From Sedimentisphaera cyanobacteriorum (lineage in GTDB: Bacteria > Planctomycetota > Phycisphaerae > Sedimentisphaerales > Sedimentisphaeraceae), in the NCBI RefSeq assembly GCF_001997385.1, contig NZ_CP019633.1, forward strand, positions 2,040,001 to 2,072,000: a stretch of 32,000 bases of DNA. The letters are read 5' to 3'. The notes beneath the pieces are model-generated. The model was not told where the DNA came from, made no database searches, and was given only the letters and a program-made list of their open reading frames with translations. Both the position numbers and the translations under genes were made by a program. How positions within the stretch are numbered: position 1 is the first letter of the stretch; each line of letters begins with the position of its first letter. Positions 16,430-30,726 of the stretch are shown here, in pieces.

Positions 16430-16869
16430 AAAATGCGTATACTTTTAACATTAGCTATAGGATTAAGAAACGGTGATATTAATTCATTAAAAATCTCTGA
16501 TATCGATTTCGAACAAAATTGCATTTGCACTAAAAGGAAAAAATACATGCCTTCACGACCGTTTTCAGCAGTAATTATGTCTGAGCTTTCAAAGTATGTC
16601 TGCGGTTTTGAAATCGGCCAAGAGAAATTGTTCTCGAAAAAATTCCCGTATCGCAAATGGCGTAAGATTGGTGACAAAGCTGGATTATCGGGATTGAAGT
16701 TTCACGATTTGCATAAAACATTTTGTTCGCTACTGGCACAGAATGGTGTTTCCACGGCGGTCACCCAACGACTCCTGAAACATTCCTCGCCTAATCTAAA
16801 GTGTATACAAACGTAGACCCAGTCTTACGCCAAGCAATAGAACATCTGCCAATTAGTAATTGGCTATAA
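16382..16869 (+). pseudogene. Tyrosine recombinase/integrase remnant (catalytic domain only, frameshifted)
   Basis: LAIGLRNGDI (box I Arg), HDLHKTFCS and LLKHSS are present. The frame stops at 16816, but the -1 frame continues KVYTNVDPVLRQAIEHLP, which carries the expected catalytic Tyr. No N-terminal core-binding domain lies upstream (stop at 16379). Confidence 0.7.
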
Positions 16870-16951
16870 TGCATGTTAACAACTTAAGATGTTTTTATGC
16901 TTCTATGACCAAGTCATAGAAACTATTGGGATTTAAAATTTCAAAACAGCC

Positions 16952-17218
16952 TTAAATGACCTTTTCTTTTTTGATTGAGTTATCTTTTTTGCCAAATATT
17001 CGCTTGGGCAATAAACACATAAAAACCGCAGTTAAGCTCGCTAATAATGCTGAAGCACCTTGACCTCCAATACAACCTGTTTGCGCGCAAAAAGGGCACG
17101 GTCCATCGCCACCACCTGAGATAAAAAAAATACCCGTAAACCATAAAAAGAAACGCCAGAGTTTATCTGATAATATTCTAAATAATCTGATATATCTCAT
17201 ACAGAAGTTTTTTATCAT
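16952..17218 (-). CDS. Small Cys-rich membrane protein
   Basis: 88 aa. Two hydrophobic segments flank GGGDGPCPFCAQTGCIGG. It overlaps the upstream gene by 4 nt. Confidence 0.45.
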   Translation of the reverse strand: MIKNFCMRYIRLFRILSDKLWRFFLWFTGIFFISGGGDGPCPFCAQTGCIGGQGASALLASLTAVFMCLLPKRIFGKKDNSIKKEKVI

Positions 17219-17985
17219 AAGCTATCCAGCCAGTTTGAAGCGAGCATTGCAAAATCCAGAAAGTTTACCTTACCATCCCTGTTTGAGTCGGCTCGTTCGT
17301 AATAATCGTTGTATATTGAGCCTTCATCTTTAAGCCAATAATAACTAAGCTCAGCAAGGTCATAAATATCTACTGTGCCGTCCACTACCAAATCACCGGC
17401 CAATGGTTTAACATTGAAAACTAAAGTGAAAGGCTCTGAAGGTTCGTATTGACCTAAAGCATCATACATTTGCCACGTAATCCAAAATAAACTGATCCCG
17501 TCGACTGCCTGAAAAGACATATGCATGTGAGGATCGCCGCGCAGAGCATGAATTTCACTGTGATTGAAAGATTGCCCAATCTGATTAATTGTAAATTGCG
17601 GGTAATCTTTATGAACCGCTCTGAAATCTGCCGGCATTGAAATACATTCAATCATTATTTGGTAATCTTCATTGGGGTTTCCAGCAAGACATCGGTTAGG
17701 ATCATAAGTATACATGGCATTGGAATTGGTTCCCTGGAAACCATCAAATCCGGGTTCACCGATTCGCCATTTATAATCGGAAAATATACTCGCCGATAGA
17801 GAATAATACCAATTTCCACTACTGCGGTATTTTTGACGGCAATCTACAAAAAGCTTATTATCATCATCAGTACCAGAGATGCTATCTTCATTTATACCGA
17901 TGATAAAGTGATCCAGCGGACATTCAGCATATACATGAACAGTCACAAAGGATAAAAAGAAAATTAGAAATATATGTTTTTTCAT
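17215..17985 (-). CDS. Secreted protein with dockerin-like C-terminus (triad 1, paralog of 18767-19600)
   Basis: Signal peptide, then YAECPLDHFIIGIN. C-terminal paired loops are DGTVDIYDLAELSYYW and DSNRDGKVNFLDFAMLASNWL. Confidence 0.8.
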   Translation of the reverse strand: MKKHIFLIFFLSFVTVHVYAECPLDHFIIGINEDSISGTDDDNKLFVDCRQKYRSSGNWYYSLSASIFSDYKWRIGEPGFDGFQGTNSNAMYTYDPNRCLAGNPNEDYQIMIECISMPADFRAVHKDYPQFTINQIGQSFNHSEIHALRGDPHMHMSFQAVDGISLFWITWQMYDALGQYEPSEPFTLVFNVKPLAGDLVVDGTVDIYDLAELSYYWLKDEGSIYNDYYERADSNRDGKVNFLDFAMLASNWLDSL

Positions 17986-18011
17986 TTTTACTATTCCTTA
18001 GGAGTTTTAGG

Positions 18012-18779
18012 TTATGGATTCTCCGGCCACGTCGGAGCTGATTCAGGATACCAATAACATTTACCGGGCCATTGGTAAGTATCTTCAAATTCCAGTGTTT
18101 CAACATGTCCATCTGCAAAAAGGTAGTTTGATTTTCCCATGTGGCGGTCCCATGCGATAAACTTTTTTGCATACTCGACAGAGCCTTCCCATGATTCCGG
18201 ATGTATGTGGTCGGCCAATAGAAAATTTTCAGTATCCGGTGCTTCGCTGATCCAAATACAGTACATGGGTTTTCGGATCGAATCGACACGATTATAACGG
18301 TTCGTAGAGCCGCCATATCTGAAACAGACAGGGTCTAAGAGAGCATTAACCGCAAAACTGGAATAACGTTTATCCTGCTGCTCGTTTAGAGGCCTGTCCC
18401 AATCTACAAAGTTTTTGGATTTATCACTGGGACAGTGGAACAACAATTGTTCACCTGTATATCTCGAAAGAACCCTAAGCCAATACTGATCCGGGTTACT
18501 AATATGGCACGAACTGGGGGGCAGACGGTTTTCGCTGTCGATAATATAAGCCTGTACCGCAATCCCAACTTGCCGCATATTGCTGGTGCATATAAGCCTT
18601 TTAGCCTGCTGTCTTGCTTTATTTAAAGCAGGCATTAAAATGCTAAGCAGCATAGCAATAATTGCAATCACCACCAAAAGCTCAATCAAAGTAAACCCTC
18701 TGGATTGGCCAGCGATTGAATTATAGCCGAGGCAGTTCTCGCTGCCCCGGCTAAAACTGAACTTATTTACGCGTTGCAT
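18012..18779 (-). CDS. Prepilin-type N-terminal cleavage/methylation + H-X9-DG (DUF1559) protein (triad 1)
   Basis: [43 protein letters not shown], and HMGKSNYLFADGHVE (H, 9 residues, DG). Confidence 0.9.
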   Translation of the reverse strand: MQRVNKFSFSRGSENCLGYNSIAGQSRGFTLIELLVVIAIIAMLLSILMPALNKARQQAKRLICTSNMRQVGIAVQAYIIDSENRLPPSSCHISNPDQYWLRVLSRYTGEQLLFHCPSDKSKNFVDWDRPLNEQQDKRYSSFAVNALLDPVCFRYGGSTNRYNRVDSIRKPMYCIWISEAPDTENFLLADHIHPESWEGSVEYAKKFIAWDRHMGKSNYLFADGHVETLEFEDTYQWPGKCYWYPESAPTWPENP

Positions 18780-19600
18780 TTTTTCTCTCTATTTCTCAAA
18801 AGAGGGATTGCGCCCAAGCCTATGAGCAATAAAGAAGCAGGTTCTGGAACTGTTACAAAGGCCATTTCAAAATTATCTGATGCTGTGTACATACCACTTG
18901 CATCATAAGCTGAAAATGTTGCTGTAACTTCCTGGCCAATATCAGGCGTAAGCCAGAAATTAAAACTCATATGCTCATGAATTCCCCATGCATTTTTATC
19001 TGACAACCATGCCTTGTCCAACTGATAAGTATCTGCGTCAGCGATTAAAACAGGTGTGTCATTCGGTAAAAGCATAAAGAAATCATCCGAAACTACAGAT
19101 GTCCCTTCGCGTTTGAGGTAAATATCCCACTGGGGGGTTGTGCTCTGATCAACACTTTCAAGATTCCATTTTCCCTGCGGGCCATGAGCGGAATGCCAGC
19201 CGTCAAGATGTTGCGTGCCTGACGGATCACCATAGCCGTTAGACTTGCTATACATGAATTGACATGTCCAAAGCTGTTTCCCTGAGGCATCACCTTTCAT
19301 GATCGGACTGCCGCTTTCTAAAACAGGTACTAACTGCAAAAATACATCGCCATTTGCCTGTTCCCAGTTCGGCCAGCCGGGTGTAGCTGCATCGTGAACC
19401 GGCGGCAGTGAGAAGAACCAGAGTTTATCGTTATCGGTTAAGTCCGAATCTGTAGCCTTGCTTGGATTTCCCGGATCAGACCAGTCAGGTCTCCAGGTCG
19501 GATTGACTCCGATGTGAGTATGAGCTAATGTACATTCAGCGTAACTTATATTGACAAAAACACATAACATAATTAGCGTAATAATGATCTTAAGATTCAT
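18767..19600 (-). CDS. PEP-CTERM protein (triad 1)
   Basis: Signal peptide, then YAECTLAHTHIGVN. The C-terminus is VPEPASLLLIGLGAIPLLRNREKK. Confidence 0.85.
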   Translation of the reverse strand: MNLKIIITLIMLCVFVNISYAECTLAHTHIGVNPTWRPDWSDPGNPSKATDSDLTDNDKLWFFSLPPVHDAATPGWPNWEQANGDVFLQLVPVLESGSPIMKGDASGKQLWTCQFMYSKSNGYGDPSGTQHLDGWHSAHGPQGKWNLESVDQSTTPQWDIYLKREGTSVVSDDFFMLLPNDTPVLIADADTYQLDKAWLSDKNAWGIHEHMSFNFWLTPDIGQEVTATFSAYDASGMYTASDNFEMAFVTVPEPASLLLIGLGAIPLLRNREKKCNA

Positions 19601-19696
19601 CGCTTATTCTCCTATTATCGAAGATTAGTTCGTAGAATATGTGCACAGACATACTCTATGAAAACAGAAATTTTTGATTCAAATTAATACGAAGAA

Positions 19697-19993
19697 TTAA
19701 ACGGGCGGTGCTCGAGGTATGAGATTAGGTGTGCATAGAAATGTTAGAGGAATATCATTATGATATTCAATTTTCTGTTCAATTGTATTGATCGAAAAAG
19801 TCGTTGCCGGAGGTGCGTTTATAATCTTGGAAGAATTGATAAATGTATTCTGACAGATTGGACAATTGTCGCAATCATGATGCTCGCAACCTCCTTCTAT
19901 GGCAATGTGCCACAAAAACAGTGCACCTGAAATATTAGCAATGAATATTGCCAATATTATAAATGAAAAAGATTGTTTCAGTTTTACCCGCAT
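19697..19993 (-). CDS. Small membrane protein with Cys/His cluster, co-transcribed with the Fur-family gene
   Basis: 98 aa. An N-terminal TM segment, then GGCEHHDCDNCPICQ. It overlaps the Fur-family ORF by 10 nt. Confidence 0.5.
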   Translation of the reverse strand: MRVKLKQSFSFIILAIFIANISGALFLWHIAIEGGCEHHDCDNCPICQNTFINSSKIINAPPATTFSINTIEQKIEYHNDIPLTFLCTPNLIPRAPPV

Positions 19994-20415
19994 GTCTTAA
20001 AAAAACCTTTCGAACATTCAGGTCCGATACCTTCGATCATTGTCATTTGACGCTGAAAAATGAATTCTTCTCCCAGGCCCTGCACTAATGGTGCATGAAC
20101 ATCAAATAAGCAAGTGACTTTGCCGCAATTAGTGCATTTGAAATGCGGATGACACTGGCGGTCGGTACATTTATCGGCCAGTTCATATTCCCATGCTTTC
20201 TTATCGACATAGGCTTTATGAACTATCCCCTTTTCGCAAAACCTTTCAAGGATTCTATAAACGGTAGTTTTATCGGGACTCCTGTCCTCTAAAGAATCCA
20301 AAATATCGCCTCTGGAAACAGGGTGATCCGCTTGAATAAGAACTTTTAGAGTCGCAATTTGCATTTGGGTGCAATTGAATCCATGATCTTTCAGTATTTT
20401 TTCAGGGTAATTCAT
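19984..20415 (-). CDS. Fur-family metalloregulator (Fur/Zur/PerR type not resolvable)
   Basis: 143 aa. A winged-helix N-terminus, then HPHFKCTNCGKVTC and a C-terminal GPEC pair. Confidence 0.88.
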   Translation of the reverse strand: MNYPEKILKDHGFNCTQMQIATLKVLIQADHPVSRGDILDSLEDRSPDKTTVYRILERFCEKGIVHKAYVDKKAWEYELADKCTDRQCHPHFKCTNCGKVTCLFDVHAPLVQGLGEEFIFQRQMTMIEGIGPECSKGFFKTCG

Positions 20416-20607
20416 TTATATTCTTTCCTGTAACTATAAGCCAAAACTGCAACATTGTTGCAATTATAACAGGACATAAAATTATTGTCAAAAACTGATT
20501 ATCAAAAAAATATTTTTTCTTTGCAACGCACTGATATTTACTTAATTCCTTTTATAGAAAGAACTTATGTTATTTCAACGGCAAAAATAAAAGTAAATAA
20601 ATTTTTC

Positions 20608-20636
20608 TTGACAAATAAGGCTGGCCTTATTATATT
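20608..20636 (+). promoter_or_regulatory. Near-consensus promoter of the DtxR-family gene with an embedded palindromic operator
   Basis: TTGACA (20608-20613), a 17-nt spacer, TATATT (20631-20636). The spacer is the inverted repeat AATAAGGC-tg-GCCTTATT. Confidence 0.55.
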
Positions 20637-20665
20637 AAATGCTCCTTATTTTCAGAAAGGCAAAA

Positions 20666-21271
20666 ATGACTCAGACTGAACAATTAAGTGCGAGTTTGGA
20701 AGACTATCTGGAAGCGATATTCAATATCATTTCAGACAAGGGGGCCGTTCGCGCTAAGGATATTGCCAAATATCTGGGCGTTAAAGCAGGTTCCGTCACG
20801 GTTGCCCTGAAAGCCCTTTCCAAGACAGATCATATTAATTATCAGCCCTATGAGGTTATTACCCTGACCTCTAAGGGGCTTGAGCAGGCCAAAGAAATCA
20901 TCCGAAAGCATGAAATACTGAAGGACTTTTTTGTGGGAATTCTTGGTGCCGACCCGAAGGTTGCTGAAGAAGGGGCTTGTAAAATCGAACATGTTATTCC
21001 GGAAAGGCTTATTAAACGCCTGACCTCATTCACGGAATTTATCCAGGCCTGTCCCCGATGCGGCAGCGATATGATCGAAAAGTTCCACGGTTATTTCAAT
21101 AAAATTCAGCCCTGTGAAATTGAGCAGTGTCAAGTTTGCTTAGGAAAAAGCATTGATCACTTAGAAAAGGAAAGAGAAAAAATGTCCAATTCAACGACAC
21201 AAACAACCCTGTTGGATATTCCAAACGGAAGCAAATTGGATTACACTGGAAATGGTTTTGCATGCAATTAA
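20666..21271 (+). CDS. DtxR/MntR-family metal-dependent repressor with a Cys-rich C-terminal extension
   Basis: I prefer the ATG at 20666 (MTQTEQLSASLEDYLEAIF), because the track start at 20639 lies at or upstream of the predicted TSS. wHTH and dimerisation motifs are present, followed by CPRCG...C....CQVC. Confidence 0.88.
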   Translation: MTQTEQLSASLEDYLEAIFNIISDKGAVRAKDIAKYLGVKAGSVTVALKALSKTDHINYQPYEVITLTSKGLEQAKEIIRKHEILKDFFVGILGADPKVAEEGACKIEHVIPERLIKRLTSFTEFIQACPRCGSDMIEKFHGYFNKIQPCEIEQCQVCLGKSIDHLEKEREKMSNSTTQTTLLDIPNGSKLDYTGNGFACN

Positions 21272-21434
21272 ACAGATTGTTCAAACTCCCGGACAATTCG
21301 TATATCGCGGCAATTGCGGTTGCAGGATTAACGGCAATAACCGCCGGAAGTTTGTTTTTGTTAAATACAATGGTTATACGAAATTAGTGGCAATCAAAAT
21401 CGGAGATGGCCATGCAGGTTATGAAAAAAATTAA
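21252..21434 (+). CDS. Small ORF of uncertain status (possibly a displaced FeoA/SH3-like C-terminal module of the regulator)
   Basis: 60 aa. It overlaps the regulator by 20 nt in another frame. Only a weak ...IVQTPGQFV... resemblance to FeoA. Confidence 0.2.
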   Translation: MVLHAIKQIVQTPGQFVYRGNCGCRINGNNRRKFVFVKYNGYTKLVAIKIGDGHAGYEKN

Positions 21435-21450
21435 TGAAAGGATTTAAATA

Positions 21451-21963
21451 ATGACCAAGATAGGATTATTTTTTGGCAGTACAACAGGCAATACTGAAAA
21501 TGCGGCTAAGATGATTAAAGATGAATTCGGGTCATCGGCAACCGTAGAATTATTCGGAATTGAAAATACAAAAACTGAAGACATTGCAAAGTATGAAATA
21601 CTTATATTTGGCACTTCGACCTGGGGATATGGCGAACCTCAAGACGACTGGGCGGGGTTTGAAAGTAATCTGGGACGCATTGATTTTAAGGGTAAAAAAG
21701 TGGCGTTTTTTGGATTGGGAGATCAGTACGGCTACGCTGACACTTTTGTCGATGCGATGGGGATGCTGTATGAAATCGTCAAAGGCAGAGGGGCACAAAT
21801 CGTTGGAATGACTTCAACAGAAGGATATTCATACGACGACTCGAAGGCTTTGGTTGACGGGCAATTTGTTGGACTTGCTCTTGATAATGATAATCAGTCT
21901 GATATGACAGCAGACCGCATTAAGCAATGGGTTATACAATTGAAAGAGGAGCTGAGGATATGA
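21451..21963 (+). CDS. fldA: Long-chain flavodoxin
   Basis: 170 aa. IGLFFGSTTGNTENAAKMI, ILIFGTSTWGYGEPQDDW and FVGLALDNDNQSD are collinear with E. coli FldA. Confidence 0.93.
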   Translation: MTKIGLFFGSTTGNTENAAKMIKDEFGSSATVELFGIENTKTEDIAKYEILIFGTSTWGYGEPQDDWAGFESNLGRIDFKGKKVAFFGLGDQYGYADTFVDAMGMLYEIVKGRGAQIVGMTSTEGYSYDDSKALVDGQFVGLALDNDNQSDMTADRIKQWVIQLKEELRI

Positions 21964-22454
21964 TAGCTTTAAATGAAACATCTAAGTTTGCATCGGTATC
22001 GCCTGACCTTGAAAAACGACGTATATCGGGCGGCATGGAAGTATTCCTTCACCATTTTTATGAATACAAGAAAGGCCTGCGCAATCTCGTTCTGCACACC
22101 TGCTACAGGGATATAGGATATGGCATTATTTGCAAACTGGAACATCATAATATCGAATACCTTATTTATCCGCTTGGAAAAAAACGCATCAATGTGTTTT
22201 TCGGCAATACCGACTGTCTGGAAATCGTAAGAAGAATCGGCAAATTATGTCTCTCCAGGTATACAGCGGAAGAAGATTTTATTTTGGGCATTATGCTTGG
22301 ATATGACCGCTGCCAACAGTGTGAAAGATATCTCAGGCTAAAACAAACCCGAAATGAAAAAAGGGTGATAAATCATAACAATGAATCCAAAAAAATTCCT
22401 GCATCTACGCAAGCTGTAAGCCAGCCGGTTGCACAAGGTTTGAAAGGAGGTTGA
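21960..22454 (+). CDS. Conserved hypothetical protein (recalled as the DUF2023-like flavodoxin-neighbour family)
   Basis: I prefer the ATG at 21960, which overlaps the fldA stop (ATGA). MEVFLHHFYEYKKGLRNLVLHT... The family name is from memory only. Confidence 0.55.
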   Translation: MIALNETSKFASVSPDLEKRRISGGMEVFLHHFYEYKKGLRNLVLHTCYRDIGYGIICKLEHHNIEYLIYPLGKKRINVFFGNTDCLEIVRRIGKLCLSRYTAEEDFILGIMLGYDRCQQCERYLRLKQTRNEKRVINHNNESKKIPASTQAVSQPVAQGLKGG

Positions 22455-22590
22455 TCGTATGGCATAAGCTTATAAAAGTAAAAGGAGTGCAGAAGTTAAA
22501 AAGGAGTGTTTAGGTAAAAGCTTCGAAATGGTTTCGGACCAGGATGAAGAAAAGAATTAAGTAAACAAAAAAGAATTGGAGAAAACTCAA
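22442..22590 (+). promoter_or_regulatory. Conserved leader element, copy 1 (upstream of the triad 2 PEP-CTERM gene)
   Basis: About 150 nt, collinear with 26294-26444. It has GAAAGGAGGTTG, 8 nt, then ATG GCA stop, the hairpin TCGAAA-tgg-TTTCGA, and AATTGGAGAAA before the ATG. Confidence 0.6.
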
Positions 22591-23232
22591 ATGAAAAATG
22601 TAAAAAGAACTTTAATGTTATTGGCAATCGCAGCGGTTGCTTTTAGTGGTGCTTCCAGTCAGGCAGCTTTCATCAATGGACAGAACTGGGCGGATAGTGT
22701 TGTAAGCTACACCAGCCAAATTCAAAATTATGGCGGCACGCTTATGGACAGTACAACCGAATTCTGGGTTCTGGGTCAATCAGATGTAGATCTGAATGGA
22801 AATATGTACGCATGGGATACTGGAGAGCCGGATTACGTTGCTGGCTGGCGAAGTGTCGCAGCTAATCAGGAAATCATTGTGGGTTTTAATACGGCCCTTG
22901 AGGATATTGCCGGTGACGATCTTGTTATCAGGTTGTATGGCGGCCCAAATGCCCAGGCATCCGTTTCGGTAAGTGAGGATAATTCAAGCTGGACCTCTAT
23001 TGGCACTATAACAGGCGAATCAGGACAAATACCGGGTACTCCAGGTTATTTGTATGATGCTGCATTTGATTTTTCGGGTTTGTTTTCAGGTGACGCCTAC
23101 TATGTCAAGGTGCACAGAGATGTTGCAGGCCCGCAGACAGGCATGTTCTTTGATTCGTTTGCATCCGTTCCGGAACCGGCAACTATGTTGATTTTGGGAT
23201 TAGGCGCTGCTTTTGTAAGAAGGCGGAAGTAG
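22591..23232 (+). CDS. PEP-CTERM protein (triad 2)
   Basis: I prefer the ATG at 22591 (GGAG 9 nt upstream) over the TTG at 22576. Signal peptide MKNVKRTLMLLAIAAVAFSGASSQA. C-terminus VPEPATMLILGLGAAFVRRRK. Confidence 0.85.
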   Translation: MKNVKRTLMLLAIAAVAFSGASSQAAFINGQNWADSVVSYTSQIQNYGGTLMDSTTEFWVLGQSDVDLNGNMYAWDTGEPDYVAGWRSVAANQEIIVGFNTALEDIAGDDLVIRLYGGPNAQASVSVSEDNSSWTSIGTITGESGQIPGTPGYLYDAAFDFSGLFSGDAYYVKVHRDVAGPQTGMFFDSFASVPEPATMLILGLGAAFVRRRK

Positions 23233-23251
23233 GTTGATTTAATATATCAGG

Positions 23252-23277
23252 ATACAGGCCGTTTAAACGGCCTGTAT
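23252..23277 (+). terminator. Perfect palindromic hairpin after the triad 2 PEP-CTERM gene (attenuator or terminator)
   Basis: ATACAGGCCGTTT/AAACGGCCTGTAT, followed by TCT. Confidence 0.45.
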
Positions 23278-23300
23278 TCTGATTGCTAAGGCTTGATAAG

Positions 23301-24038
23301 ATGACAAAAAAGGTTAACAACGCGTTTACTTTAGTTGAACTGTTAGTCGTTATAAGTATTATAGGGCTGCTTACGGGGATACTTATGCCTGTATTATCTG
23401 TTGCCAGAGAACAGGGAAGATGTGTTGTCTGTAAATCCAACTTAAAAAATATTGGATTTGCCCTCAGAGTGTATCTTGATGATTATGAAGGCAAAATGCC
23501 CTCTGCCGACCCTTACCCGGGAAGTTACGGCCAAAAGAGTCAGCACTGGTTTATGAACTCTGTATTGCTCAAGAATATGGGTCTTGAGGTTCTCAAAGAT
23601 GAGGACGGTGAACTAATCGGTCCAGGTAAAGAGCGTTCTGTTCTGACCTGTCCGACCCACAGGCACCCCGATATGACGCGAGACAGCCCGCCGGATTACC
23701 CGGCCCAAGAGCGAGAGTATTCATTGAGTTATATGGCCAACGGAACACTTGGTGTTTCGGGGAAAGCTCTTGTTGCCATGGAATATCGTCATGAATCCGA
23801 ATACAGAAGACCAAGTGAGGCAATGATGTTTTGCGACGGCAATGGAACAATGCAGACTCCGGGAACTGTCTTATATGACGGTTGTCCCAAATCGAATTTT
23901 GAATTTAGACATAGAGGTAAAGTTAACGCAATATTTCTCGACCAGCATATCGAATCCCTCAAAGAAGAGGATATTCCTTTCTGCACCAGGTTTGATGAAA
24001 GGAGATTCGGTACATTTTGGTATGCAAAGAAAAAATAA
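23301..24038 (+). CDS. Prepilin-type N-terminal + H-X9-D(Q) DUF1559-like protein (triad 2)
   Basis: ATG at 23301 ([24 protein letters not shown]...). HRGKVNAIFLDQHIE is a variant with DQ instead of DG. Confidence 0.85.
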   Translation: MTKKVNNAFTLVELLVVISIIGLLTGILMPVLSVAREQGRCVVCKSNLKNIGFALRVYLDDYEGKMPSADPYPGSYGQKSQHWFMNSVLLKNMGLEVLKDEDGELIGPGKERSVLTCPTHRHPDMTRDSPPDYPAQEREYSLSYMANGTLGVSGKALVAMEYRHESEYRRPSEAMMFCDGNGTMQTPGTVLYDGCPKSNFEFRHRGKVNAIFLDQHIESLKEEDIPFCTRFDERRFGTFWYAKKK

Positions 24039-24053
24039 GGGTAACAAGGAATT

Positions 24054-25007
24054 ATGAAAAATAAATATTACATATTATTAGCTATTTTGGCCTTTAGCCA
24101 GGCAGTACAGGCTCGGTATATTGAAGGAATAAATTGGGCGGACGAGGTTGTAAGCCATACGGATAAGATTCAAAGCTGGGCGGATGGTTATTGCGGCGGC
24201 CCCGGAGCACATTTCATGGATCCCAATACCCCTGCCACAACATGGTGGGTACTTGGTCCCAGCGATGCCGATGGAAACGGCGATATGTACGCCCATGACT
24301 TTGCCCTGGGCGACCGCGATTATGTCGCAGGCTGGCGGACAGGATCGCTTTTACACGCGAATCAGGAAATTATCGTTCAGTTTCATGCAGGAATTAAGGA
24401 TATTGAAGGTGCGGACCTTGTTATAAGGCTGTTTTGCGGCCCTATAGCGAAAGCTTCTGTCTGGGCCAGTACTGATGGCAATGATTTTACCCAAATTGGT
24501 ACCATCGAGGGGCACTTAAACCAAATTCCCGGTATAGGCGGTGAGCTTTATGATGCGTATTTTGACTTTGACGGCTTATTCACGGCAGATGTTCATTTTA
24601 TCCGAGTTTTCAGAGAAGTGACCGAGCCGCAATCCGGAATGTTTTTTGATTCATTCAGCACCGCTTATATCGATCTGCCCGGCGATTGCAATGAGGTTGG
24701 TTTGTTTGGATGGTCGTTAGCGGGCGATATCAATAAGGATTGTTATGTTAACCTCAAGGATTTCGCAATGCTTGCGAATCAATGGCAAAAGTGCAATGAT
24801 CCTAATGATCCCGACTTTGACGCATCGCTTTTTGATGATCCAAATTCGATACCTTCAACTTGCCACGGAGTTTGGCAGGCTGGTATGGGCTTGGCCGCGG
24901 ATATTAATCAGGATTGCAAAGTAGATATTTTGGATTTGGCGACCATGATCGAAAACTATTTATGCTGCAATAATCCTGAAGATTTGAACTGTATTGTAAA
25001 TTGGTAA
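24054..25007 (+). CDS. Secreted protein with dockerin-like C-terminus (triad 2, paralog of 22591-23232)
   Basis: The N-terminal roughly 200 aa align with the PEP-CTERM neighbour (NWAD.VVS.T..IQ, DYVAGWR, NQEIIV, DLVIRL, GMFFDSF). C-terminal loops are GDINKDCYVNLKDFAMLANQW and ADINQDCKVDILDLATMIENYL. Confidence 0.8.
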   Translation: MKNKYYILLAILAFSQAVQARYIEGINWADEVVSHTDKIQSWADGYCGGPGAHFMDPNTPATTWWVLGPSDADGNGDMYAHDFALGDRDYVAGWRTGSLLHANQEIIVQFHAGIKDIEGADLVIRLFCGPIAKASVWASTDGNDFTQIGTIEGHLNQIPGIGGELYDAYFDFDGLFTADVHFIRVFREVTEPQSGMFFDSFSTAYIDLPGDCNEVGLFGWSLAGDINKDCYVNLKDFAMLANQWQKCNDPNDPDFDASLFDDPNSIPSTCHGVWQAGMGLAADINQDCKVDILDLATMIENYLCCNNPEDLNCIVNW

Positions 25008-25045
25008 ACTAAAGGTTATTTATAATTTTTTTTGGAATATAGGTA

Positions 25046-25711
25046 ATGCGAAAATATATATTAATTTTAGCCATAGTGGTAGGTAGTTTTTCTTTTTTAC
25101 AGGGATGTGAAAAAGCTGAGAATAAATCTACAGAAATAAATAGTCTTCTCGGCCAAATAAAGCCCTTGCAGGTTCAACATGACGACAATGAGGTTTTATC
25201 CATCTCTGTCAATCAGGCAATGGCCTTTCACGAAAACCATGAACATTCTCATTCTCAAGCCGAAGATTCGCACCCATCAAATGATCACCATCTCTGTATG
25301 GGAGTTTTAACCGGATACCAGGCTATTCGTTATGCTGTTGATGAGCTTTTCGGCCAAAGCGTCCCGCAGGCATCTGACTTTGAGATTAGTGTAACAGGAC
25401 CAATGGATGGCGTATGGGACATGATGAGTTTATATACGGGCAAGGAGATGAGATTCGAAGGTGAACCCCAGCCGATGGATTTGAAAAGTTTCACGTTTAC
25501 GGCCAGGAAAATATCCGAGGACAAATCACTTGTGTTCGGTCTTCGTCCGGGAATAATACCTGAGGAATTTTTTGAACTCAAGAACCAGGGGGCGACCTGC
25601 GGCAACCCGGAGTTGAGCAAATTAAAACAACAGGCATTGCTGAATATTTTATCTGTTGAGCCTGACAAGTGTTTTGAGGTTATCAATAATGACAGCGATG
25701 CCGGCCAATAG
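25046..25711 (+). CDS. His-rich lipoprotein
   Basis: Lipobox FLQGC, then HENHEHSHSQAEDSHPSNDHHLCMGVLTGYQA. The HLCxG segment faintly recalls FmdE-type domains. Confidence 0.6.
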   Translation: MRKYILILAIVVGSFSFLQGCEKAENKSTEINSLLGQIKPLQVQHDDNEVLSISVNQAMAFHENHEHSHSQAEDSHPSNDHHLCMGVLTGYQAIRYAVDELFGQSVPQASDFEISVTGPMDGVWDMMSLYTGKEMRFEGEPQPMDLKSFTFTARKISEDKSLVFGLRPGIIPEEFFELKNQGATCGNPELSKLKQQALLNILSVEPDKCFEVINNDSDAGQ

Positions 25712-25749
25712 TAGATCGATTCGAGTTTAGTATTAAAGAAAGGCAAATA

Positions 25750-25992
25750 ATGGCACAAGCATCTTTTTTTGTGAACGACATCAAGGTCAAGAGAAAAGGT
25801 GATTTCATTTTTCTTTTGGCGCAAAGAAAATGTATCCACGGCACGGTTTTCTATGAGATATGTCTGACTATGCCGGCAGAGCTTATGCATCTTTTTAGCG
25901 ATGTCGAAGGGGCCGAAGGGAACAAGTTAAACGGCAATATCAATGCTGATGATCTGGCAAAGCGGTTTAAGCGATTTTCAGGTGATAATTAA
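25750..25992 (+). CDS. Hypothetical protein
   Basis: An 80-aa ORF in an operon-like position. No recognisable motif. Confidence 0.35.
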   Translation: MAQASFFVNDIKVKRKGDFIFLLAQRKCIHGTVFYEICLTMPAELMHLFSDVEGAEGNKLNGNINADDLAKRFKRFSGDN

Positions 25993-25993
25993 A

Positions 25994-26179
25994 ATGAAGG
26001 ATTCTGAAAAAAAACAAGTACTTGATTTAGTGTCTAAGGCAGATGGGAATGATTGCAAACCAAAGGTTTATGAATCGTCGCAGCTTTTCGGAAGCCACAA
26101 TGAAATACAAATACACCATGAAGGTGAGCTATACCGAATTAGAATAACCCGGAACGGAAAATTGATAATGAATAAATAA
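25994..26179 (+). CDS. hemP: Hemin uptake protein HemP/HmuP family
   Basis: I prefer the ATG at 25994 (61 aa). The C-terminal ...SSQLFGSHNEIQIHHEGELYRIRITRNGKLIMNK matches the HemP signature. Confidence 0.8.
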   Translation: MKDSEKKQVLDLVSKADGNDCKPKVYESSQLFGSHNEIQIHHEGELYRIRITRNGKLIMNK

Positions 26180-26293
26180 TTAACAATATTAGACATAACT
26201 TGCAACCCAGCAAGCAATCCAAAAGCCAGCCAGGGAGCAATAGAAGCATTTACCTCATGCATCTATTGCTCTTTTTTTATGCAAGTCTTCGAG

Positions 26294-26444
26294 GAAAGGA
26301 GGTTGGTGATATGGCATAGGCTTAAAAAGTAAACGGATTGAAGAAGTTGAAAGGAGTTTTTGTATAAAGCCTCGAAATGGTTTCGGAGCAGAAATGAAAA
26401 TTTATTAAATGAAAAACGAAGAAGAAAGAATTGGAGAAATTCAC
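26294..26444 (+). promoter_or_regulatory. Conserved leader element, copy 2 (upstream of the triad 3 PEP-CTERM gene)
   Basis: See 22442-22590. Confidence 0.6.
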
Positions 26445-27131
26445 ATGAAAAATGTAAAAAGAAATTTAACGTTGTTGGTTGCGGCAGTTGCAGCTTTGAG
26501 TCTTGTTTCAGGTGCGAATGCCAGTCTTGGCGATTTGGAGCGAACAGGTTACACCGCCATGGGCGGAAGTGTCCAAGGCAGCCCACTGGGGCATATTAGC
26601 CAAGAGCCAGGTGATAGAGATTATGTCCTTTTGCAGCCGCTCGATGGCGGAATGTATGGTCCTGAGATGTGGGGTTATGCATGGATGAAATTTGATGTAA
26701 CCGCAACAGCACCTGTCGATTCGGCATTTCTGGTATTGAACCAACTACCCGGAGACGGAATGGGATATGTTGAACCAACGCCAGAAAATCCGGTTGATTT
26801 TTCCATTCATTCAGTAAACGCAGATGTGGCCGGCATTACAATCGACACTGCGGTTATGGAGAATTTCAAAAATAACAATGTTGTTGCGATTCCTGAAATA
26901 ACAGCCTCAATTTTAAGTCCCGGTGTCTTTAGCGTGGACATTACAGATATCTACAATGGCTGGATTACAGGAGACAACTACGGTATGGTTCTTTCGGGAG
27001 CAGGAAAATTTTCAAGCATAGGACATCCTGATGGTGATGCTCCATACCTAAGCACAACAGTAGTTCCTGAGCCGGCAACAGTAGCTTTGTTTGGCCTTGG
27101 CGGGCTATTGTTCCGTAGAAAACGGAAATAA
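26445..27131 (+). CDS. PEP-CTERM protein (triad 3)
   Basis: I prefer the ATG at 26445 (GGAG 9 nt upstream). MKNVKRNLTLLVAAVAALSLVSGANA. C-terminus VPEPATVALFGLGGLLFRRKRK. Confidence 0.85.
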   Translation: MKNVKRNLTLLVAAVAALSLVSGANASLGDLERTGYTAMGGSVQGSPLGHISQEPGDRDYVLLQPLDGGMYGPEMWGYAWMKFDVTATAPVDSAFLVLNQLPGDGMGYVEPTPENPVDFSIHSVNADVAGITIDTAVMENFKNNNVVAIPEITASILSPGVFSVDITDIYNGWITGDNYGMVLSGAGKFSSIGHPDGDAPYLSTTVVPEPATVALFGLGGLLFRRKRK

Positions 27132-27151
27132 AATAGATAATTGTTGATTTT

Positions 27152-27184
27152 GATATCCGGCCCTGTTGGGCAGGGCCTGATATC
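27152..27184 (+). terminator. Hairpin after the triad 3 PEP-CTERM gene (attenuator or terminator)
   Basis: ATATCCGGCCCTG-ttgg-CAGGGCCTGATAT, a 13-bp stem with one mismatch. Confidence 0.4.
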
Positions 27185-27208
27185 TTTAAAGAAAGGAAAA
27201 CCAAAAAA

Positions 27209-28696
27209 ATGAACAAAAGATATATCATAATTACAGTTTTGCTATGCGGCTGCTTAACCGGTGTATCGAACGGTTTCCAACTAAACCCTGAGCTGGATTT
27301 CTATACACCTATGTCAACAATGGTTGTTCCAGACAGGACTTATTTGCTTACCTCGAATGCATACGAGTGGATGGACATGGGATCCGGGCCGGAAAGTTTT
27401 GAAACATTGCTTTTTTTGAAATTCGACACAGATTCAGTCCCCCAGGAAGAGGTCTCTCAGGCATGGCTTAGGCTGGGTTCAGGGGCTGGAGGCACAATGG
27501 GCGAGACCTCTCGTCCAGTTTTGGTTTCCGTTCATCCTGTGGACAGGGATATTTCAGAAATGCTTGACGGGACAACATCTCCCCGAGATTTTTATGTATT
27601 TAACGATCATATTCTTGACTCGGTTGATAGTGTTATGGTCTTTCAAGATGGAGTTTGTTACTGGGACATTACTGACATTGTAAACAACTGGATTCTTTAT
27701 CAAAATACTGCCGGCTCTGAGGGATATGAGAATCTGGGACTGGCTATTACCGGAAGAGATGATGCAGGAGCGTTGGATCCCAATGATAATGAGCATGCAG
27801 GTTTCTGGTCATCTCGAGCCCAAAGTATGCCAAATGCTGCGCGGCCGGCTCTGTTCATTATAGAATCCGAAGACCCATTAGATTTGCCGTGGCTTCCTGA
27901 ATGGAGCGTCAATTCAGGTTTCTCTACCCAATTCTGGACCCTTTCAGGCGAGGCTGGTCGGCTGGAGCAAGGAGCAACTGCGGACGGCTATATGGAAAAC
28001 AGTTTTGGTCAGCCCTATATTGAGTGGGAGCAGGAAGAAGAATTTGCCGGTTCAGAAATCATTAATCCTTTTTTAACATGGCACCCATTTGCTGACAGCC
28101 CCGATGGCAGCGCACATCCGGACTGGGTCGGGGGAGTCTATGGCGGGGTTTATCGGGGCGCAGGCGGATCGTACGATCAACATACGCTTTCGGCTTTCGT
28201 ACCAACCGGAGAAGAGCAAGGTTCATTAACCGTATTGGTGCAGTATGACTGGTTTGACAGAGGTGTTGTTGATGTTAATGTTATATCCGGCCAAGAGATA
28301 TTCCTCGAAAACGGCTTTGATGTATTAGTCGGTACTGCAGGGGATCACAGTTGGTACCGCAGCACAAGGGCATATGAACTTATTGACAACCCCGGAGAAA
28401 TAGAAGTGGAGTTTATTATTTCGGGTCAGGAGCCCTACCTCGCCTCTTTTTCGGTTACGACTGCTTTGAATACAGCAGTACCGCAAGGTCCAGTTCGACA
28501 TATTAATGACTACAATTTTGATGGGATCATTAATTTTTGTGATTTTGCTGTTTTTGCATTGGAATGGACGCAAACAGAACCACCTTTGTTTTACGATCTT
28601 ACTGATAGCGGTTTTGTGGGAATTGAGGACTTGGCCCTATTTTCGGAATCATGGCTGCATACAAGTTTGTTTAGATACTTACAACAGGATAACTAA
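27209..28696 (+). CDS. Secreted protein with dockerin-like C-terminus (triad 3, N-terminal domain paralogous to 26445-27131)
   Basis: 495 aa. WDITDIVNNWIL...NLGLAITG parallels VDITDIYNGWITGDNYGMVLSG in the neighbour. C-terminal loops are NDYNFDGIINFCDFAVFALEW and DLTDSGFVGIEDLALFSESWL. Confidence 0.8.
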   Translation: MNKRYIIITVLLCGCLTGVSNGFQLNPELDFYTPMSTMVVPDRTYLLTSNAYEWMDMGSGPESFETLLFLKFDTDSVPQEEVSQAWLRLGSGAGGTMGETSRPVLVSVHPVDRDISEMLDGTTSPRDFYVFNDHILDSVDSVMVFQDGVCYWDITDIVNNWILYQNTAGSEGYENLGLAITGRDDAGALDPNDNEHAGFWSSRAQSMPNAARPALFIIESEDPLDLPWLPEWSVNSGFSTQFWTLSGEAGRLEQGATADGYMENSFGQPYIEWEQEEEFAGSEIINPFLTWHPFADSPDGSAHPDWVGGVYGGVYRGAGGSYDQHTLSAFVPTGEEQGSLTVLVQYDWFDRGVVDVNVISGQEIFLENGFDVLVGTAGDHSWYRSTRAYELIDNPGEIEVEFIISGQEPYLASFSVTTALNTAVPQGPVRHINDYNFDGIINFCDFAVFALEWTQTEPPLFYDLTDSGFVGIEDLALFSESWLHTSLFRYLQQDN

Positions 28697-28710
28697 CGCA
28701 GGACTAACAT

Positions 28711-29511
28711 ATGCAATATTCTACTGAAAAACAAAATGGCTTTACCCTTATAGAACTTCTGGTAGTTATTTCTATTATCAGTTTGTTGATAGCATTTCTT
28801 TTGCCTGCTTTGCGCAGGGCCAGAGAAGCAGCAAAGCAAATATCCTGTGCTTCTAATATGCGACAGATATCTCTTGCGTTCAACATGTATGGAATGTCAA
28901 ACGAAGACAAAATTCCGGTCGCATCGAAAATAATGGGAGCCAATAACCCATGGATATGGGCACTTTTGCCTTATATCCAGGGTGACCAGAACAAATCACA
29001 GACATTTGAAAGACCGGCAGAGCTTTGGTTTTGTCCTTCCGACCATGATCCATACCCTTTACATTACGCCCCGCATGGTCAGGAGTACACAAGTTACGCA
29101 TTGAATGGATATTATGAAGAAGCCCAGGCCGGTTCCGGATGGTCTGGCGGGTCACCGGAAATCAGGATCGGGCCTGCCGGCGGATATAAATACACCCAGC
29201 TCAGAAACCCATCAAGTGTGATGCTGATGATGGAAACCAGCTATTATGGTCAGGTTTACGACATGAAAAACCCCCATGTCCGACCATATACTTTACCATC
29301 GGAGGGACATCATCGAAATACAAGTGGTTTTTATCATAGTGGCAAAATGAATCTGATGTTCATCGATGGCCATGTCGAATCCATAAGTGGCAAAAAAGCC
29401 GATCCATGGCCCGCGCCGTTCTCGGTTTCGTCTCAGGGAGGGATATTCTGGCCCGAACTTTCGTTGCCGGATTCAATTGAAAAGAGAACGCTGTGGGGGC
29501 CAGGTTACTAA
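28711..29511 (+). CDS. Prepilin-type N-terminal + H-X9-DG (DUF1559) protein (triad 3)
   Basis: [43 protein letters not shown], and [15 protein letters not shown]. Confidence 0.9.
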
Positions 29512-30464
29512 TGAATTTCCTTATAAAATGTTGTTTAAGCTTACTTATATTTTTGACTGGATGCCATACAATGAATACTAATGTTGGCCGTTATGGTTTT
29601 TGGGTAGATGCCTACATAGGCGAACCTATTGCTTATGATGAATTGGTAACAGATTTATCGCAGGTCGATATTGTTTATCTTGGTGAGAGACATACACTAA
29701 AACGCCACCATGATATTCAGCAAAAAATTATTACAGAGCTGATTTTAAAAGATAAGCATATTATCCTTGGCCTTGAACAATTCGAAGCTTTTCAGCAGCC
29801 AATAATTGAAAAATATAATCGTAGCGAAATCACACTTGATCAGTTAACCGAACAAACTGATTGGCCATCACGATGGAGTAACTACCTTGATTATTGTGAT
29901 ATTGTAAAGGCAGTACATGATGCAGGCGGTGAAGTAGTCGGACTCAATGCCCGTCAGGAAATAGTCAGGAAGGTGGCTCGAAAAGGAATGGATTCTTTGA
30001 CTAACGAGGAAAGGAATGAGTTGCCTGTTGAAATTGACACCAGTAATGAATCTTATCGTCAACATATGAATAACACAATGATGGTAATGGCACATGTAAA
30101 AAACAATCCTGACATGCTGGATAGAATGTTTACCGCCCAGGTTTGCAGAGATGAAATGATGGCAGAAAGTCTTTATAAGGCAATCAAATCTTCAGAAAAG
30201 CAAAATAGCATAGCTGTTGTCTTGTGCGGCAGTGGCCATTTGATTCATGGTTCGGGAATTCCATCTCGATTGAAGCGAAGGTTGCCGAATTTAAAAGATA
30301 GAATTGTTGTTTTAAGCGGGAGCGGAGATGTGGAATTATCTAAAAGCATGCAAGCAATGAGTAGAGATGTTAAAACTTCTCATCAACAATTGAAATGTTT
30401 TGAAACACCTGTAGCGGATTATCTACATGTTGTAAACCTTGATGGACAATTGGATAAGTACTAA
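29511..30464 (+). CDS. chaN: ChaN-family (heme-binding, Tiki/ChaN superfamily) lipoprotein
   Basis: The ATG at 29511 overlaps the preceding stop (TAATG). Lipobox LTGC. DIVYLGERHT...HHDIQ...LGLEQFE...VVGLNA are typical of ChaN. Confidence 0.8.
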   Translation: MNFLIKCCLSLLIFLTGCHTMNTNVGRYGFWVDAYIGEPIAYDELVTDLSQVDIVYLGERHTLKRHHDIQQKIITELILKDKHIILGLEQFEAFQQPIIEKYNRSEITLDQLTEQTDWPSRWSNYLDYCDIVKAVHDAGGEVVGLNARQEIVRKVARKGMDSLTNEERNELPVEIDTSNESYRQHMNNTMMVMAHVKNNPDMLDRMFTAQVCRDEMMAESLYKAIKSSEKQNSIAVVLCGSGHLIHGSGIPSRLKRRLPNLKDRIVVLSGSGDVELSKSMQAMSRDVKTSHQQLKCFETPVADYLHVVNLDGQLDKY

Positions 30465-30594
30465 GAATCAAATTAAAATAAAAAGCCTATTTCTATATTA
30501 AATGGGGGGACTCGAAAGTGTTATGTTTACACCAGCGAGTTTAGGCTTGCTGGTGCAGACGATTTAGTGAATTTTTATTTAAAATGGAAATAAA

Positions 30595-30726
30595 ATGAAA
30601 CCAAAATGTGAAAATTCTAATTGTAACTGTGATGGAAAATGCAAAGTCTGTCAATGCCGTGAAACCGTAGCAATTGCCGTGCAGTCTCAAGTCAAAGAGA
30701 AAAAGGCCGAAAGGACTGCAAAATGA
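30595..30726 (+). CDS. Unannotated 43-aa Cys-rich ORF, translationally coupled to the radical SAM gene
   Basis: MKPKCENSNCNCDGKCKVCQCRETVAIAVQSQVKEKKAERTAK has 6 Cys in residues 5-21. Its stop overlaps the next ATG (ATGA at 30723-30726). It is below the ORF-track length cut-off. Confidence 0.45.
   Translation: MKPKCENSNCNCDGKCKVCQCRETVAIAVQSQVKEKKAERTAK

Follow-up and report, generated by a model that had tools for sequence, protein, structure and literature searches.

Why should three sets of genes for a PEP-CTERM protein, a paralogue with a dockerin-like tail and a pilin-like protein lie among metal-responsive regulators and haem genes? This question is raised by a 32,000-nt stretch of DNA (the window; positions 2,040,001 to 2,072,000 of contig NZ_CP019633.1) from Sedimentisphaera cyanobacteriorum, an anaerobic member of the Phycisphaerae (Planctomycetota). 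An earlier note on this DNA had proposed that the three triads, here designated T1, T2 and T3, are envelope capture or uptake modules for iron, haem or another metal. Our analysis supports this proposal through recurrent synteny with metal genes. We consider it moderately probable that each cassette forms the front end, at the outer envelope, of a pathway for importing metal or haem that would be induced by metal starvation, although binding of ligand, induction and uptake are features that we infer from sequences and structure models.

An open reading frame (ORF) search of the window recovered all nine triad genes. T1 is encoded on the minus strand and consists of a PEP-CTERM protein (18767-19600), a pilin-like protein (18012-18779) and a dockerin-tailed paralogue (17215-17985). 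The other two triads are on the plus strand. T2 comprises a PEP-CTERM protein (22591-23232; 100% identical to L21SP3_01668), a pilin-like protein (23301-24038) and a dockerin-tailed paralogue with a Cys-rich tail (24054-25007). T3 comprises a PEP-CTERM protein (26445-27131), a long paralogue (27209-28696) with 13 homologues, and a pilin-like protein (28711-29511). The long paralogue contains a DNRLRE-like domain, a middle domain and a degenerate dockerin-like tail. T1 and T2 are transcribed as PEP-pilin-dockerin, whereas in T3 the pilin comes last (PEP-dockerin-pilin). For T1 and T2, the coordinates in the earlier note are listed as PEP-CTERM, pseudopilin and dockerin, which departs from the order named in its text. 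No position on a contig was found for a paralogue, L21SP3_00861.

Most of the domains predicted in the earlier note were detected by profile searches. The PEP-CTERM signal (PF07589/TIGR02595), which is composed of a PEP motif, a hydrophobic helix and a basic tail, scored above the Pfam cut-off of 20.7 bits in all three anchored proteins (22.5, 29.4 and 25.3 bits), and N_methyl (PF07963, TIGR02532) did so in all three pilins (32.3, 27.5 and 33.8 bits; cut-off 21.2). DUF1559 (PF07596, SBP_bac_10) was present in the pilins of T1 (30.0 bits) and T3 (35.6 bits), with alignments spanning only the first 40-70 profile positions; the T2 pilin, with 20.5 bits, was under the cut-off of 23.3. The same two pilins matched the C-terminal H-X9-DG model (TIGR04294; 27.6 and 21.5 bits, cut-off 19). 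The T2 pilin had no TIGR04294 match and reads H-X9-DQ in place of DG; in addition, Ala replaces Gly at position -1 of its prepilin cleavage motif G/A-F-T-L-x-E. Dockerin_1 (PF00404), a domain of two calcium-binding loop-helix repeats, was found in the tailed paralogues of T1 (39.1 bits, E 8.5e-10) and T2 (29.5 bits, E 8.7e-7; cut-off 22.9), and not in that of T3, whose tail had no Pfam dockerin match even at E <= 1. By profile-profile comparison (hhalign), the T3 tail could be aligned with the T1 dockerin region (probability 92%, E 5.6e-7).

The claim that the anchored and the tailed protein of each triad share an N-terminal domain was well founded for T2 (52% identity, E 3e-62) and moderately so for T3 (30% identity over 130 aa, E 3e-6). 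For T1, similarity by BLAST was weak (E 1e-4), and the relationship became visible in a family alignment, in which C22, H26, H153, H155, D41 and D175 were invariant in PEP and dockerin forms alike. The three domains were also unrelated to one another, as had been suggested, since comparison between families with hhalign aligned the dockerin tails only. In searches against PDB sequence profiles, too, these families and the pilins gave no matches other than to dockerin tails or to the N-terminal helices of pilins; the profile of the T1 family (A5), for example, matched solved dockerins.

Would such gene sets be expected together simply from their high copy number? The earlier note had named this in advance as the finding that would count against it. 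We scanned one genome per species and obtained 71 loci with a homologue of the T1 dockerin protein, which were analyzed by ORF prediction and phmmer. Of the 62 loci with enough sequence, 60 had a T1-type pilin gene as the immediate upstream neighbour of the dockerin gene. A PEP-CTERM paralogue was encoded upstream in 49 of 56 loci, and 43 of 51 had a Fur-family homologue on the same strand, no more than 4 kb upstream. The flanking DNA provided the background: 10 other pilin-like ORFs in 688 kb, or 0.15 per 10 kb, corresponding to approximately 0.015 per 1-kb slot. Co-occurrence is thus far beyond copy number.

T2 and T3 were also found in other genomes (compared loci are designated by L numbers). 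T2, as PEP-pilin-dockerin followed by a gene for a His-rich lipoprotein, was detected in L001, L004, L010 and L013 and as a variant in L008, where it adjoins or sits between genes for DtxR, FeoA, FeoB and HemP and sometimes an OprB porin. In L013, L014 and L015, T3 was represented by the PEP-CTERM protein, the long paralogue, the pilin and ChaN, followed by CbiX or a radical SAM/HutW-like enzyme; ahead of it lay either HemP or the set of DtxR, flavodoxin and DUF2023. Gene order and orthology were maintained across genomes whose proteins are only 44-60% identical.

The pilins follow the same pattern. Those of the window are 29-30% identical to each other, and orthologues matched with E values of 1e-104 to 1e-172 (about 1e-118 for T2 pilins in L001, L004, L010 and L013; 1e-106 to 1e-115 for T3 pilins), compared with 1e-15 to 1e-25 across module types. 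T1-type pilins conserve DHxHPexW and AWDRH motifs in addition to H-X9-DG. Judged by sequence, each pilin forms an orthologous lineage of its own that stays with one cassette.

A fourth module was identified in L015 (827-4943, beside NikR), L067 (9714-13865) and L080 (1-3941, minus strand). It encodes a 329-377-aa protein with a dockerin-like tail, a pilin of its own lineage, ZnuA, an ABC ATPase and an ABC-3 permease (ZnuA-ZnuC-ZnuB), and the pilin gene lies between the gene for the binding protein and znuA. This Znu-type module follows T1 in L067 and is divergent from it in L080. The tails proved variable: the "PEP" copy of T1 carries a dockerin tail in L056 and a His/Asp tail in L066, one orthologue ends in HDDDHDHDHED, and on a Pirellulales-labelled contig both tails occurred on single proteins. 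The conserved architecture of anchored copy, dockerin-tailed copy and pseudopilin therefore requires revision: dockerin-tailed protein and pilin are constant, but the PEP copy is missing or replaced in some genomes. The fourth module and these variants suggest that the core is a dockerin-tailed secreted protein with a dedicated pilin, attached to a metal importer.

Further evidence came from the leaders of T2 and T3, which are about 230 nt long and about 80% identical. The T2 leader (22409-22590) contains an element like the HemP/HmuP-responsive element (HPRE), GCAAGCTGTAAGCCAGCC (22409-22426), a strong Shine-Dalgarno sequence with a two-codon ORF, and a hairpin, TTCGAAATGGTTTCGG. In the T3 leader (26198-26444), HPRE repeats, CCCAGCAAGC...AAGCCAGCCAGG (approximately 26207-26238), are followed by a hairpin with a U-run (approximately 26233-26285) and a second hairpin at 26369-26387. 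In Proteobacteria, the HPRE is located behind hemP in the 5' region of genes for TonB-dependent haem or siderophore receptors, one of which is chuR, the haem receptor gene of C. violaceum (PMC9131926). It is linked there, with reference to Amarelle et al. 2019, to a HemP-dependent and probably post-transcriptional activation (PMC9131926). The configuration that defines the element, AGCCAGCC-type repeats just downstream of hemP and 5' of an uptake gene, was found at 26207-26238 of the window, and matches were also present in L001, L004, L008, L010 and L013-L016. The C. violaceum chuR copy reads CCCGCAAGCCAGCCGACAGCCAGCCAGCG and those of L008 and L172 read AGCCAGCCGAAAGCCAGCCAGG; the L008 and L172 copies have AGCCAGCCGAAAGCCAGCCAG versus the published AGCCAGCCGACAGCCAGCCAG. 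A hemP gene with an HPRE was found ahead of T3 both in the window and in L013-L016, and ahead of T2 in L001, L004, L008 and L010. We found no report of an HPRE outside Proteobacteria in the literature searched.

The 5' part of the leader was retained in other genomes ahead of the first T2 or T3 gene: a spacer separates CCCAGCAAGC from AAGCCAGCCAGG, behind which a hairpin with a U-run follows. Apart from T2 of L013, all fetched loci had AAGCCAGCCAGGGAGC, with CCCAGCAAGC upstream of it, before the first gene of T2 or T3. A metagenome scan with the 16-mer AAGCCAGCCAGGGAGC yielded, among the 120 stretches listed, nearly all chance matches; true elements were those of L123, L152, L172 and perhaps L193. 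Three metagenome contigs had hemP and an HPRE ahead of porins, namely OprB, Porin_O_P and a truncated ORF without a family match. Since the HPRE matches the element before the receptor gene chuR, the triads occupy the slot of the outer-envelope uptake component. ChaN beside T3 points to the same slot, because the Campylobacter ChaN gene is a neighbour of a receptor gene.

The leader hairpin was supported by covariation, as none of 500 shuffles reached the score observed for nine sequences, and HemP-dependent antitermination is a possible mechanism for the combination of HPRE and hairpin. Downstream of it, the strong Shine-Dalgarno sequence GGAAAGGAGG is followed after 7-9 nt by a two-codon ORF, ATG-GCN-stop (Met-Ala; window 22452-22470 and 26303-26321), which in the T3 leader reads ATG-GCA-TAG. 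This ORF is approximately 120 nt upstream of the PEP-CTERM start codon in T2 and T3 and has the same position in L001, L010 and L013-L015. The exact hairpin of the T2 and T3 leaders, TCGAAATGGTTTCGG, was absent from the first 15 loci, of which some had related versions. No Rfam family matched at gathering score, and a permissive threshold gave only a spurious, terminator-like match to a plastid 3'UTR model. Three other interpretations of the leader were discarded: a sigma-54 promoter on the opposite strand (its spacing differs between genomes), a leader peptide across the HPRE (its reading frame is not conserved), and, as a general feature, a long-range helix ACUUGCA/UGCAAGU around the hairpin, which covaries in the nine sequences and is absent in L123 and L152.

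Strong hairpins were also observed right behind the PEP-CTERM genes of T2 (23246-23283) and T3 (27159-27177), before the next gene of the cassette. They may be partial terminators or stabilisers that give a higher dose of the anchored protein.

Transcriptional control appears to be divided between two regulators with adjacent promoters. The Fur-family protein (19984-20415, minus strand; PF01475, E 1.8e-11, 44.7 bits versus a cut-off of 23.1) is encoded by the first gene of the T1 operon, and its scores against the PerR, Fur and Zur equivalog models were all far under the cut-offs. The DtxR/MntR-family regulator (20639-21271, plus strand) matched PF02742 (72.6 bits) and PF01325 (47.8 bits); its best NCBIfam matches were MntR models, below cut-off. 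The intergenic region between the two genes has the two best promoter-like sites of the scanned stretch (16800-31000). That of the Fur/T1 operon (20463-20491, minus strand) is of the sigma-70 type, TTGACA-17-TATAAT with an upstream TG, and agrees at 12 of 12 positions; that of the DtxR operon (20608-20636, plus strand) reads TTGACA-17-TATATT. As a class, promoter-like sites were not enriched in this stretch (35 found versus 36.2 expected in shuffled sequences), and the T1 promoter is therefore called on its perfect score and position. From the DtxR promoter to the end of the window, all genes are on the plus strand and separated by short gaps. The earlier idea of an iron/haem regulon thus held with regard to the presence of metal regulators but not as a single unit: the Fur-family regulator goes with T1, and DtxR and HemP/HPRE go with T2 and T3.

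Each promoter is associated with a palindrome. Directly after the -10 hexamer of the T1 promoter lies a perfect palindrome, TGCAACATTGTTGCA (20448-20462), which has a single match in the window and is a putative operator at which the Fur-family regulator of T1 would bind. Of the 71 T1 loci (L016-L086), 41 have TGCAAC-N3-GTTGCA, which is unlike the classical Fur box; L076 has two copies and the other 40 have one. In the loci compared, it is located upstream of the first gene of the operon. The spacer of the DtxR promoter contains ATAAGGC-TG-GCCTTAT (20615-20630), and this ATAAGGCTGGCCTTAT site is a candidate DtxR target. With up to one mismatch, TWAGGC-N2-GCCTWA was present beside DtxR, Feo or T2 genes in L010, L013 and L015, against a background of 9 matches in 875 kb; L013 had three such sites, one of them 140 nt upstream of T2. 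The search for Fur or DtxR boxes recommended in the earlier note returned a single poor match to the classical Fur box, inside the flavodoxin gene, and no IdeR/DtxR box.

Taken together, these features suggest the following model. Ligand binding would be the task of two secreted beta-sandwich paralogues, of which one would be fixed to the cell by its PEP-CTERM/exosortase signal and the other may be tethered non-covalently, or positioned further out, through its calcium-type dockerin-like tail. The type-IV-pilin-like protein, residing in the inner membrane, would link this capture layer to an inner-membrane importer, and by analogy with Isd systems the ligand might pass from the outer dockerin copy to the anchored copy, the pilin and finally the importer. 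Putative partners are FeoAB, the His-rich lipoprotein and the OprB porin for T2; ChaN, CbiX/HutW and an ECF-type haem pathway for T3; a His-rich permease for T1 in most genomes; and ZnuABC for the fourth module. T1 would be transcribed from the consensus promoter, with its start covered by TGCAAC-N3-GTTGCA, to which the Fur-family repressor encoded in the operon presumably binds. For T2 and T3, transcription would proceed from the DtxR promoter with ATAAGGC-N2-GCCTTAT in its spacer, and HemP acting on the leader HPRE would boost both, perhaps by suppressing the overlapping hairpin and U-run.

Candidate metal ligands are the Cys/His/His/His set of T1, the acidic cluster of T2, the His-rich lipoprotein and the His-rich permease encoded in 41 T1 operons. 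The likely ligand of T3 is haem and that of T2 Fe(II) or Mn; zinc for T1 is a guess from Znu adjacency and the Cys/His ligands.

Several observations weigh against this model. Pfam, NCBIfam and PDB profile searches found no known metal- or haem-binding family in any triad protein, and the T1 beta-sandwich had no PDB fold match at E < 0.01. The window itself has neither FeoAB nor the His-rich permease. Neither the classical Fur box nor the IdeR box is present at the promoters; the proposed operators are recognized only by conservation and position, and the DtxR-like box is absent in L001, L004 and L014. Synteny of T2 and T3 extends to 4 to 6 other genomes, all of one lineage. Finally, the CBM/discoidin-like fold of T2 and the DNRLRE-like domain of T3 typify proteins that bind glycans.

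The role of the pilin admits another explanation, which we regard as a serious though lesser possibility. The pilin could be a cargo-specific pseudopilin, a tip or minor subunit of a machine similar to the type II secretion system (T2SS) or type IV pili (T4P), which drives both capture proteins through the outer membrane, and it would have no part in import. When the three triad pilins and their orthologues were combined in one profile, it matched solved pilins and GspG over the N-terminal helix only, and this resemblance to GspG as well as to type IV pilins agrees with export; so does a weak T2SSG match of one fourth-module pilin. Each pilin lineage co-evolves with its cargo family, and the dozens of DUF1559 paralogues per planctomycete genome would fit many cargo adaptors (PMC10632474, PMC2754498). 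However, no gene for a prepilin peptidase, secretion ATPase, platform protein or secretin was found in any cassette examined, and the position of the fourth-module pilin between binding protein and ZnuA suits a partner in transport.

The predicted folds bear on a second alternative. For T1, the model (pLDDT 83) consists of a beta-sandwich and a helical dockerin tail. The T2 domain was modelled with a pLDDT of 90.7, and its best Foldseek matches were CBM29, CBM32 and discoidin (E approximately 1e-4, TM 0.35-0.58); no Pfam or PDB sequence-profile match for discoidin, F5-8 type C or CBM32 was obtained. Conserved residues of this domain are N32, W33, D35, D65, D67, D81 and D188, which include an invariant acidic cluster. 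Scores against DNRLRE (NF033679, cut-off 34 bits) were 33.5 bits for the T3 long protein and 20.9 bits for the T3 PEP-CTERM protein. Such folds and domains mean that the T2 and T3 ligand could be a glycan, and the triads might then be sets of surface lectins or adhesins that attach cells to polysaccharide, cyanobacterial sheath or mineral when metals are scarce and bind neither metal nor haem. Dockerin and PEP-CTERM tails are typical of polysaccharide degraders and floc formers, partial floc_PepA matches were seen, and members of this class have been described as degraders of complex polysaccharides. Nevertheless, this explanation is improbable: the genes occur within FeoAB, ZnuABC and ChaN/HutW operons and behind the HPRE, which indicates an uptake pathway rather than glycan-utilisation loci. 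In addition, no carbohydrate-active enzyme is conserved in the cassettes, and the invariant residues are Cys and His (T1) or Asp clusters (T2) rather than the aromatic platforms typical of CBMs.

Third, the surface proteins could buffer metals, sequestering toxic or excess metal or denying it to competitors, with no uptake involved. Acidic and His/Cys-rich surfaces, such as the HDDDHDHDHED tail, are possible sinks. However, the partner genes encode importers (FeoAB, ZnuABC) and haem-utilisation enzymes and not efflux systems. Repressors of the Fur and DtxR type with an operator over the promoter normally allow induction under starvation rather than excess, which also counts against buffering and makes it very unlikely. 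An accidental neighbourhood of abundant PEP-CTERM, dockerin and DUF1559 genes with metal genes, which the 68-74 DUF1559 paralogues per genome in other planctomycetes and the further PEP-CTERM genes of the window (824-1747 and 13190-14047) might suggest, has a negligible chance of being correct and is refuted by the 60 of 62 adjacencies against approximately 0.015 per slot and by the conservation of order, orthology, operators and leaders.

An import front end with paired binding proteins thus remains our preferred explanation. Extended further, it would mean that Phycisphaerae import haem and metals by a TonB-independent machine, in which specificity lies in paired secreted binding proteins and in a substrate-specific pilin-like protein that bridges the outer layers and the inner-membrane transporter, and that a sizeable part of the DUF1559/H-X9-DG expansion in PVC bacteria consists of substrate-specific uptake pseudopilins. 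In this general form the idea is speculative, and we consider it rather unlikely. With respect to T1, T2 and T3, no match to a TonB-dependent receptor family (plug and 22-strand barrel) was found in the triad proteins, and the structure models of T1 and T2 are small beta-sandwiches; they may function in place of such a receptor without belonging to its family.

The genes surrounding the triads include the regulators and haem-related proteins listed in the earlier note, and profile searches confirmed the Fur-family and DtxR/MntR-like regulators, flavodoxin, HemP, ChaN and the ChuW/HutW-like enzyme. In the T1 operon, the regulator gene is followed by a gene for a small membrane protein (19697-19993, minus strand) with a CEHHDCDNCPIC motif of the CxxC/HH type, which has homologues in 31 of 51 T1 loci and an orthologue with a weak, below-cut-off match to DUF2946 (E 0.0027). 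The T1 dockerin protein has more than 260 homologues at 55-93% identity. A small membrane ORF with a CPFC motif and no family match (16952-17218, minus strand) is the last in the operon; its membership is doubtful, because it is conserved downstream in 3 loci only. In 41 T1 operons of other genomes, the first gene after the palindrome encodes a polytopic membrane protein (approximately 250 aa) that has a His-rich loop and the motifs FHPxHVxLSA, HxGFIE and VWLPCCxSD (L050:4496-5257, L026:4529-5287, L078:4276-5142 and 38 further T1 loci). It is the candidate permease mentioned above; neither this protein nor the small Cys-rich proteins belong to a Pfam or NCBIfam family.

Between the DtxR gene and T2, family searches identified a flavodoxin (21451-21963) and a DUF2023 protein (21927-22454), both on the plus strand, and this pair also precedes T3 in L013 and L014. 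The fourth gene of the T2 cassette (25046-25711, plus strand) encodes the His-rich lipoprotein, whose orthologues lie behind T2 in L001, L004, L010 and L013. It contains the motifs HENHEHSH and HLCxGV and has a weak FmdE match (E 0.012) at the latter. Next come genes for a conserved small protein of about 80 aa without a family match (25750-25992, plus strand), always just upstream of HemP, and for HemP itself (25943-26179, plus strand; PF10636, E 2.4e-15). The same pair was found in L013, L015 and L016, where the small protein is encoded at L013:7557-7805, L015:8023-8271 and L016:2178-2423 (minus strand).

The T3 PEP-CTERM protein has orthologues in L013, L014 and L015, and in the same three loci, as in the window, the gene for the ChaN-family haem-binding lipoprotein (29493-30464, plus strand; PF04187, E 6e-55) is directly behind the pilin gene. 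A small Cys-rich ORF of 43 aa, CENSNCNCDGKCKVCQC (30595-30726, plus strand), was detected by ORF search between the ChaN gene and that for the ChuW/HutW-like radical SAM enzyme (TIGR04107, E 9e-83). The latter starts at 30882 on the plus strand and continues past the end of the window at 32000; incomplete as it is, the protein scores under the TIGR04107 cut-off. No exosortase of the EpsH/XrtA family was found within the window, to which that search was directed, and a cohesin was encountered neither there nor in the fetched loci, to which this observation extends.

Other features of the window are located upstream of the triads. A diversity-generating retroelement (DGR) occupies 13190-15760 and comprises a target protein of the FGE-sulfatase fold with a PEP-CTERM tail (13190-14047), bAvd (14136-14519) and a reverse transcriptase (14462-15562). 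Its template repeat (approximately 15610-15710) and variable region (approximately 13900-13998) differ exclusively at template adenines. A fragment of a phage-integrase-family gene (16433-16816) lies where the retroelement region meets the T1 operon. The segment 2231-10925 has about 60% G+C in a genome of about 40% G+C and encodes three large secreted proteins with EF-hand and esterase/alpha-beta-hydrolase domains, two of which share a near-identical N-terminus of about 380 aa; an IS transposase gene lies behind it (11629-12996). These features suggest that the block was acquired horizontally. The PEP-CTERM protein encoded at 824-1747 (307 aa) has no other recognisable domain.

Full-text literature searches returned no description of this architecture or of PEP-CTERM, dockerin and pseudopilin together. 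For a subset of the DUF1559/H-X9-DG family, to which no function has been assigned, the analysis provides fixed partners, defined regulators and candidate ligands, and thereby a testable role. If the proposed function is correct, it would show a way for anaerobic planctomycetes to obtain haem, iron and other metals that does not use the proteobacterial type of receptor, extend HemP/HPRE control to another phylum and to non-receptor targets, and provide a physiological role for non-cellulosomal dockerin tails and PEP-CTERM anchors.

Known systems resemble the triads in different respects. In the Isd haem relay of Gram-positive bacteria, NEAT-domain proteins are attached by different sortases under control of Fur. 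The likeness is one of operon logic only: paralogous binding domains are anchored differently, an importer is encoded together with them, and a metal regulator represses the genes. By contrast, Pfam and NCBIfam scans found no NEAT domain in the triad proteins, PEP-CTERM and a dockerin-like tail replace the sortase signals, the envelope is diderm, and a pilin is added. In Campylobacter, the haem-binding lipoprotein ChaN is encoded beside the outer-membrane receptor ChaR. A ChaN-family lipoprotein likewise adjoins a presumed outer-envelope uptake component in our window, but this neighbour is the T3 triad and not a TonB-dependent receptor. As in cellulosomal type I dockerin-cohesin pairs, the tails of T1 and T2 pass PF00404 and have duplicated calcium-loop repeats; here, however, no enzyme cargo is present, no cohesin was seen in the window and fetched loci, and the tails of T2 and T3 are Cys-rich and degenerate, respectively.

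Pilins have previously been connected with metals: PilA1 of Synechocystis is tied to acquisition of Fe and Mn and PilA2 of Legionella to that of Fe, the latter role being independent of pilus assembly (PMC4144903, PMC5634550, PMC13170364). These reports lend some support to a pilin within the relay, although PilA1 and PilA2 are major pilins with other roles, encoded outside metal operons, whereas the DUF1559/H-X9-DG pilins described here are module-specific and lie inside operons. Known DUF1559/H-X9-DG prepilins of PVC bacteria have no assigned function and are massively expanded; in planctomycetes they rank with the largest paralogue families, with 68-74 paralogues per genome (PMC10632474, PMC2754498). 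In the literature searched, DUF1559 is mentioned only as a family without a known function. Both models recognize the T1 and T3 pilins, and the triad pilins are distinguished by a fixed set of partners and a metal-regulon context; the T2 member is divergent.

A further correspondence is to operons of HemP, HPRE and a TonB-dependent receptor, such as hemPRSTUV of Yersinia, chuPRSTUV of C. violaceum and hmuP-shmR of E. meliloti (PMC9131926). They share with the present locus hemP, an HPRE with AGCCAGCC repeats, an outer-envelope uptake gene, haem-handling genes downstream and a metal-responsive repressor (PMC9131926). In the planctomycete, however, a hairpin with a U-run is joined to the HPRE, a two-codon ORF comes next, and the gene behind the element is the head of a PEP-CTERM triad or, in other contigs, a porin gene. 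The parts come from known families and the operon logic (repressor, HemP/HPRE, importer) is known; what is new is the occupant of the receptor position.

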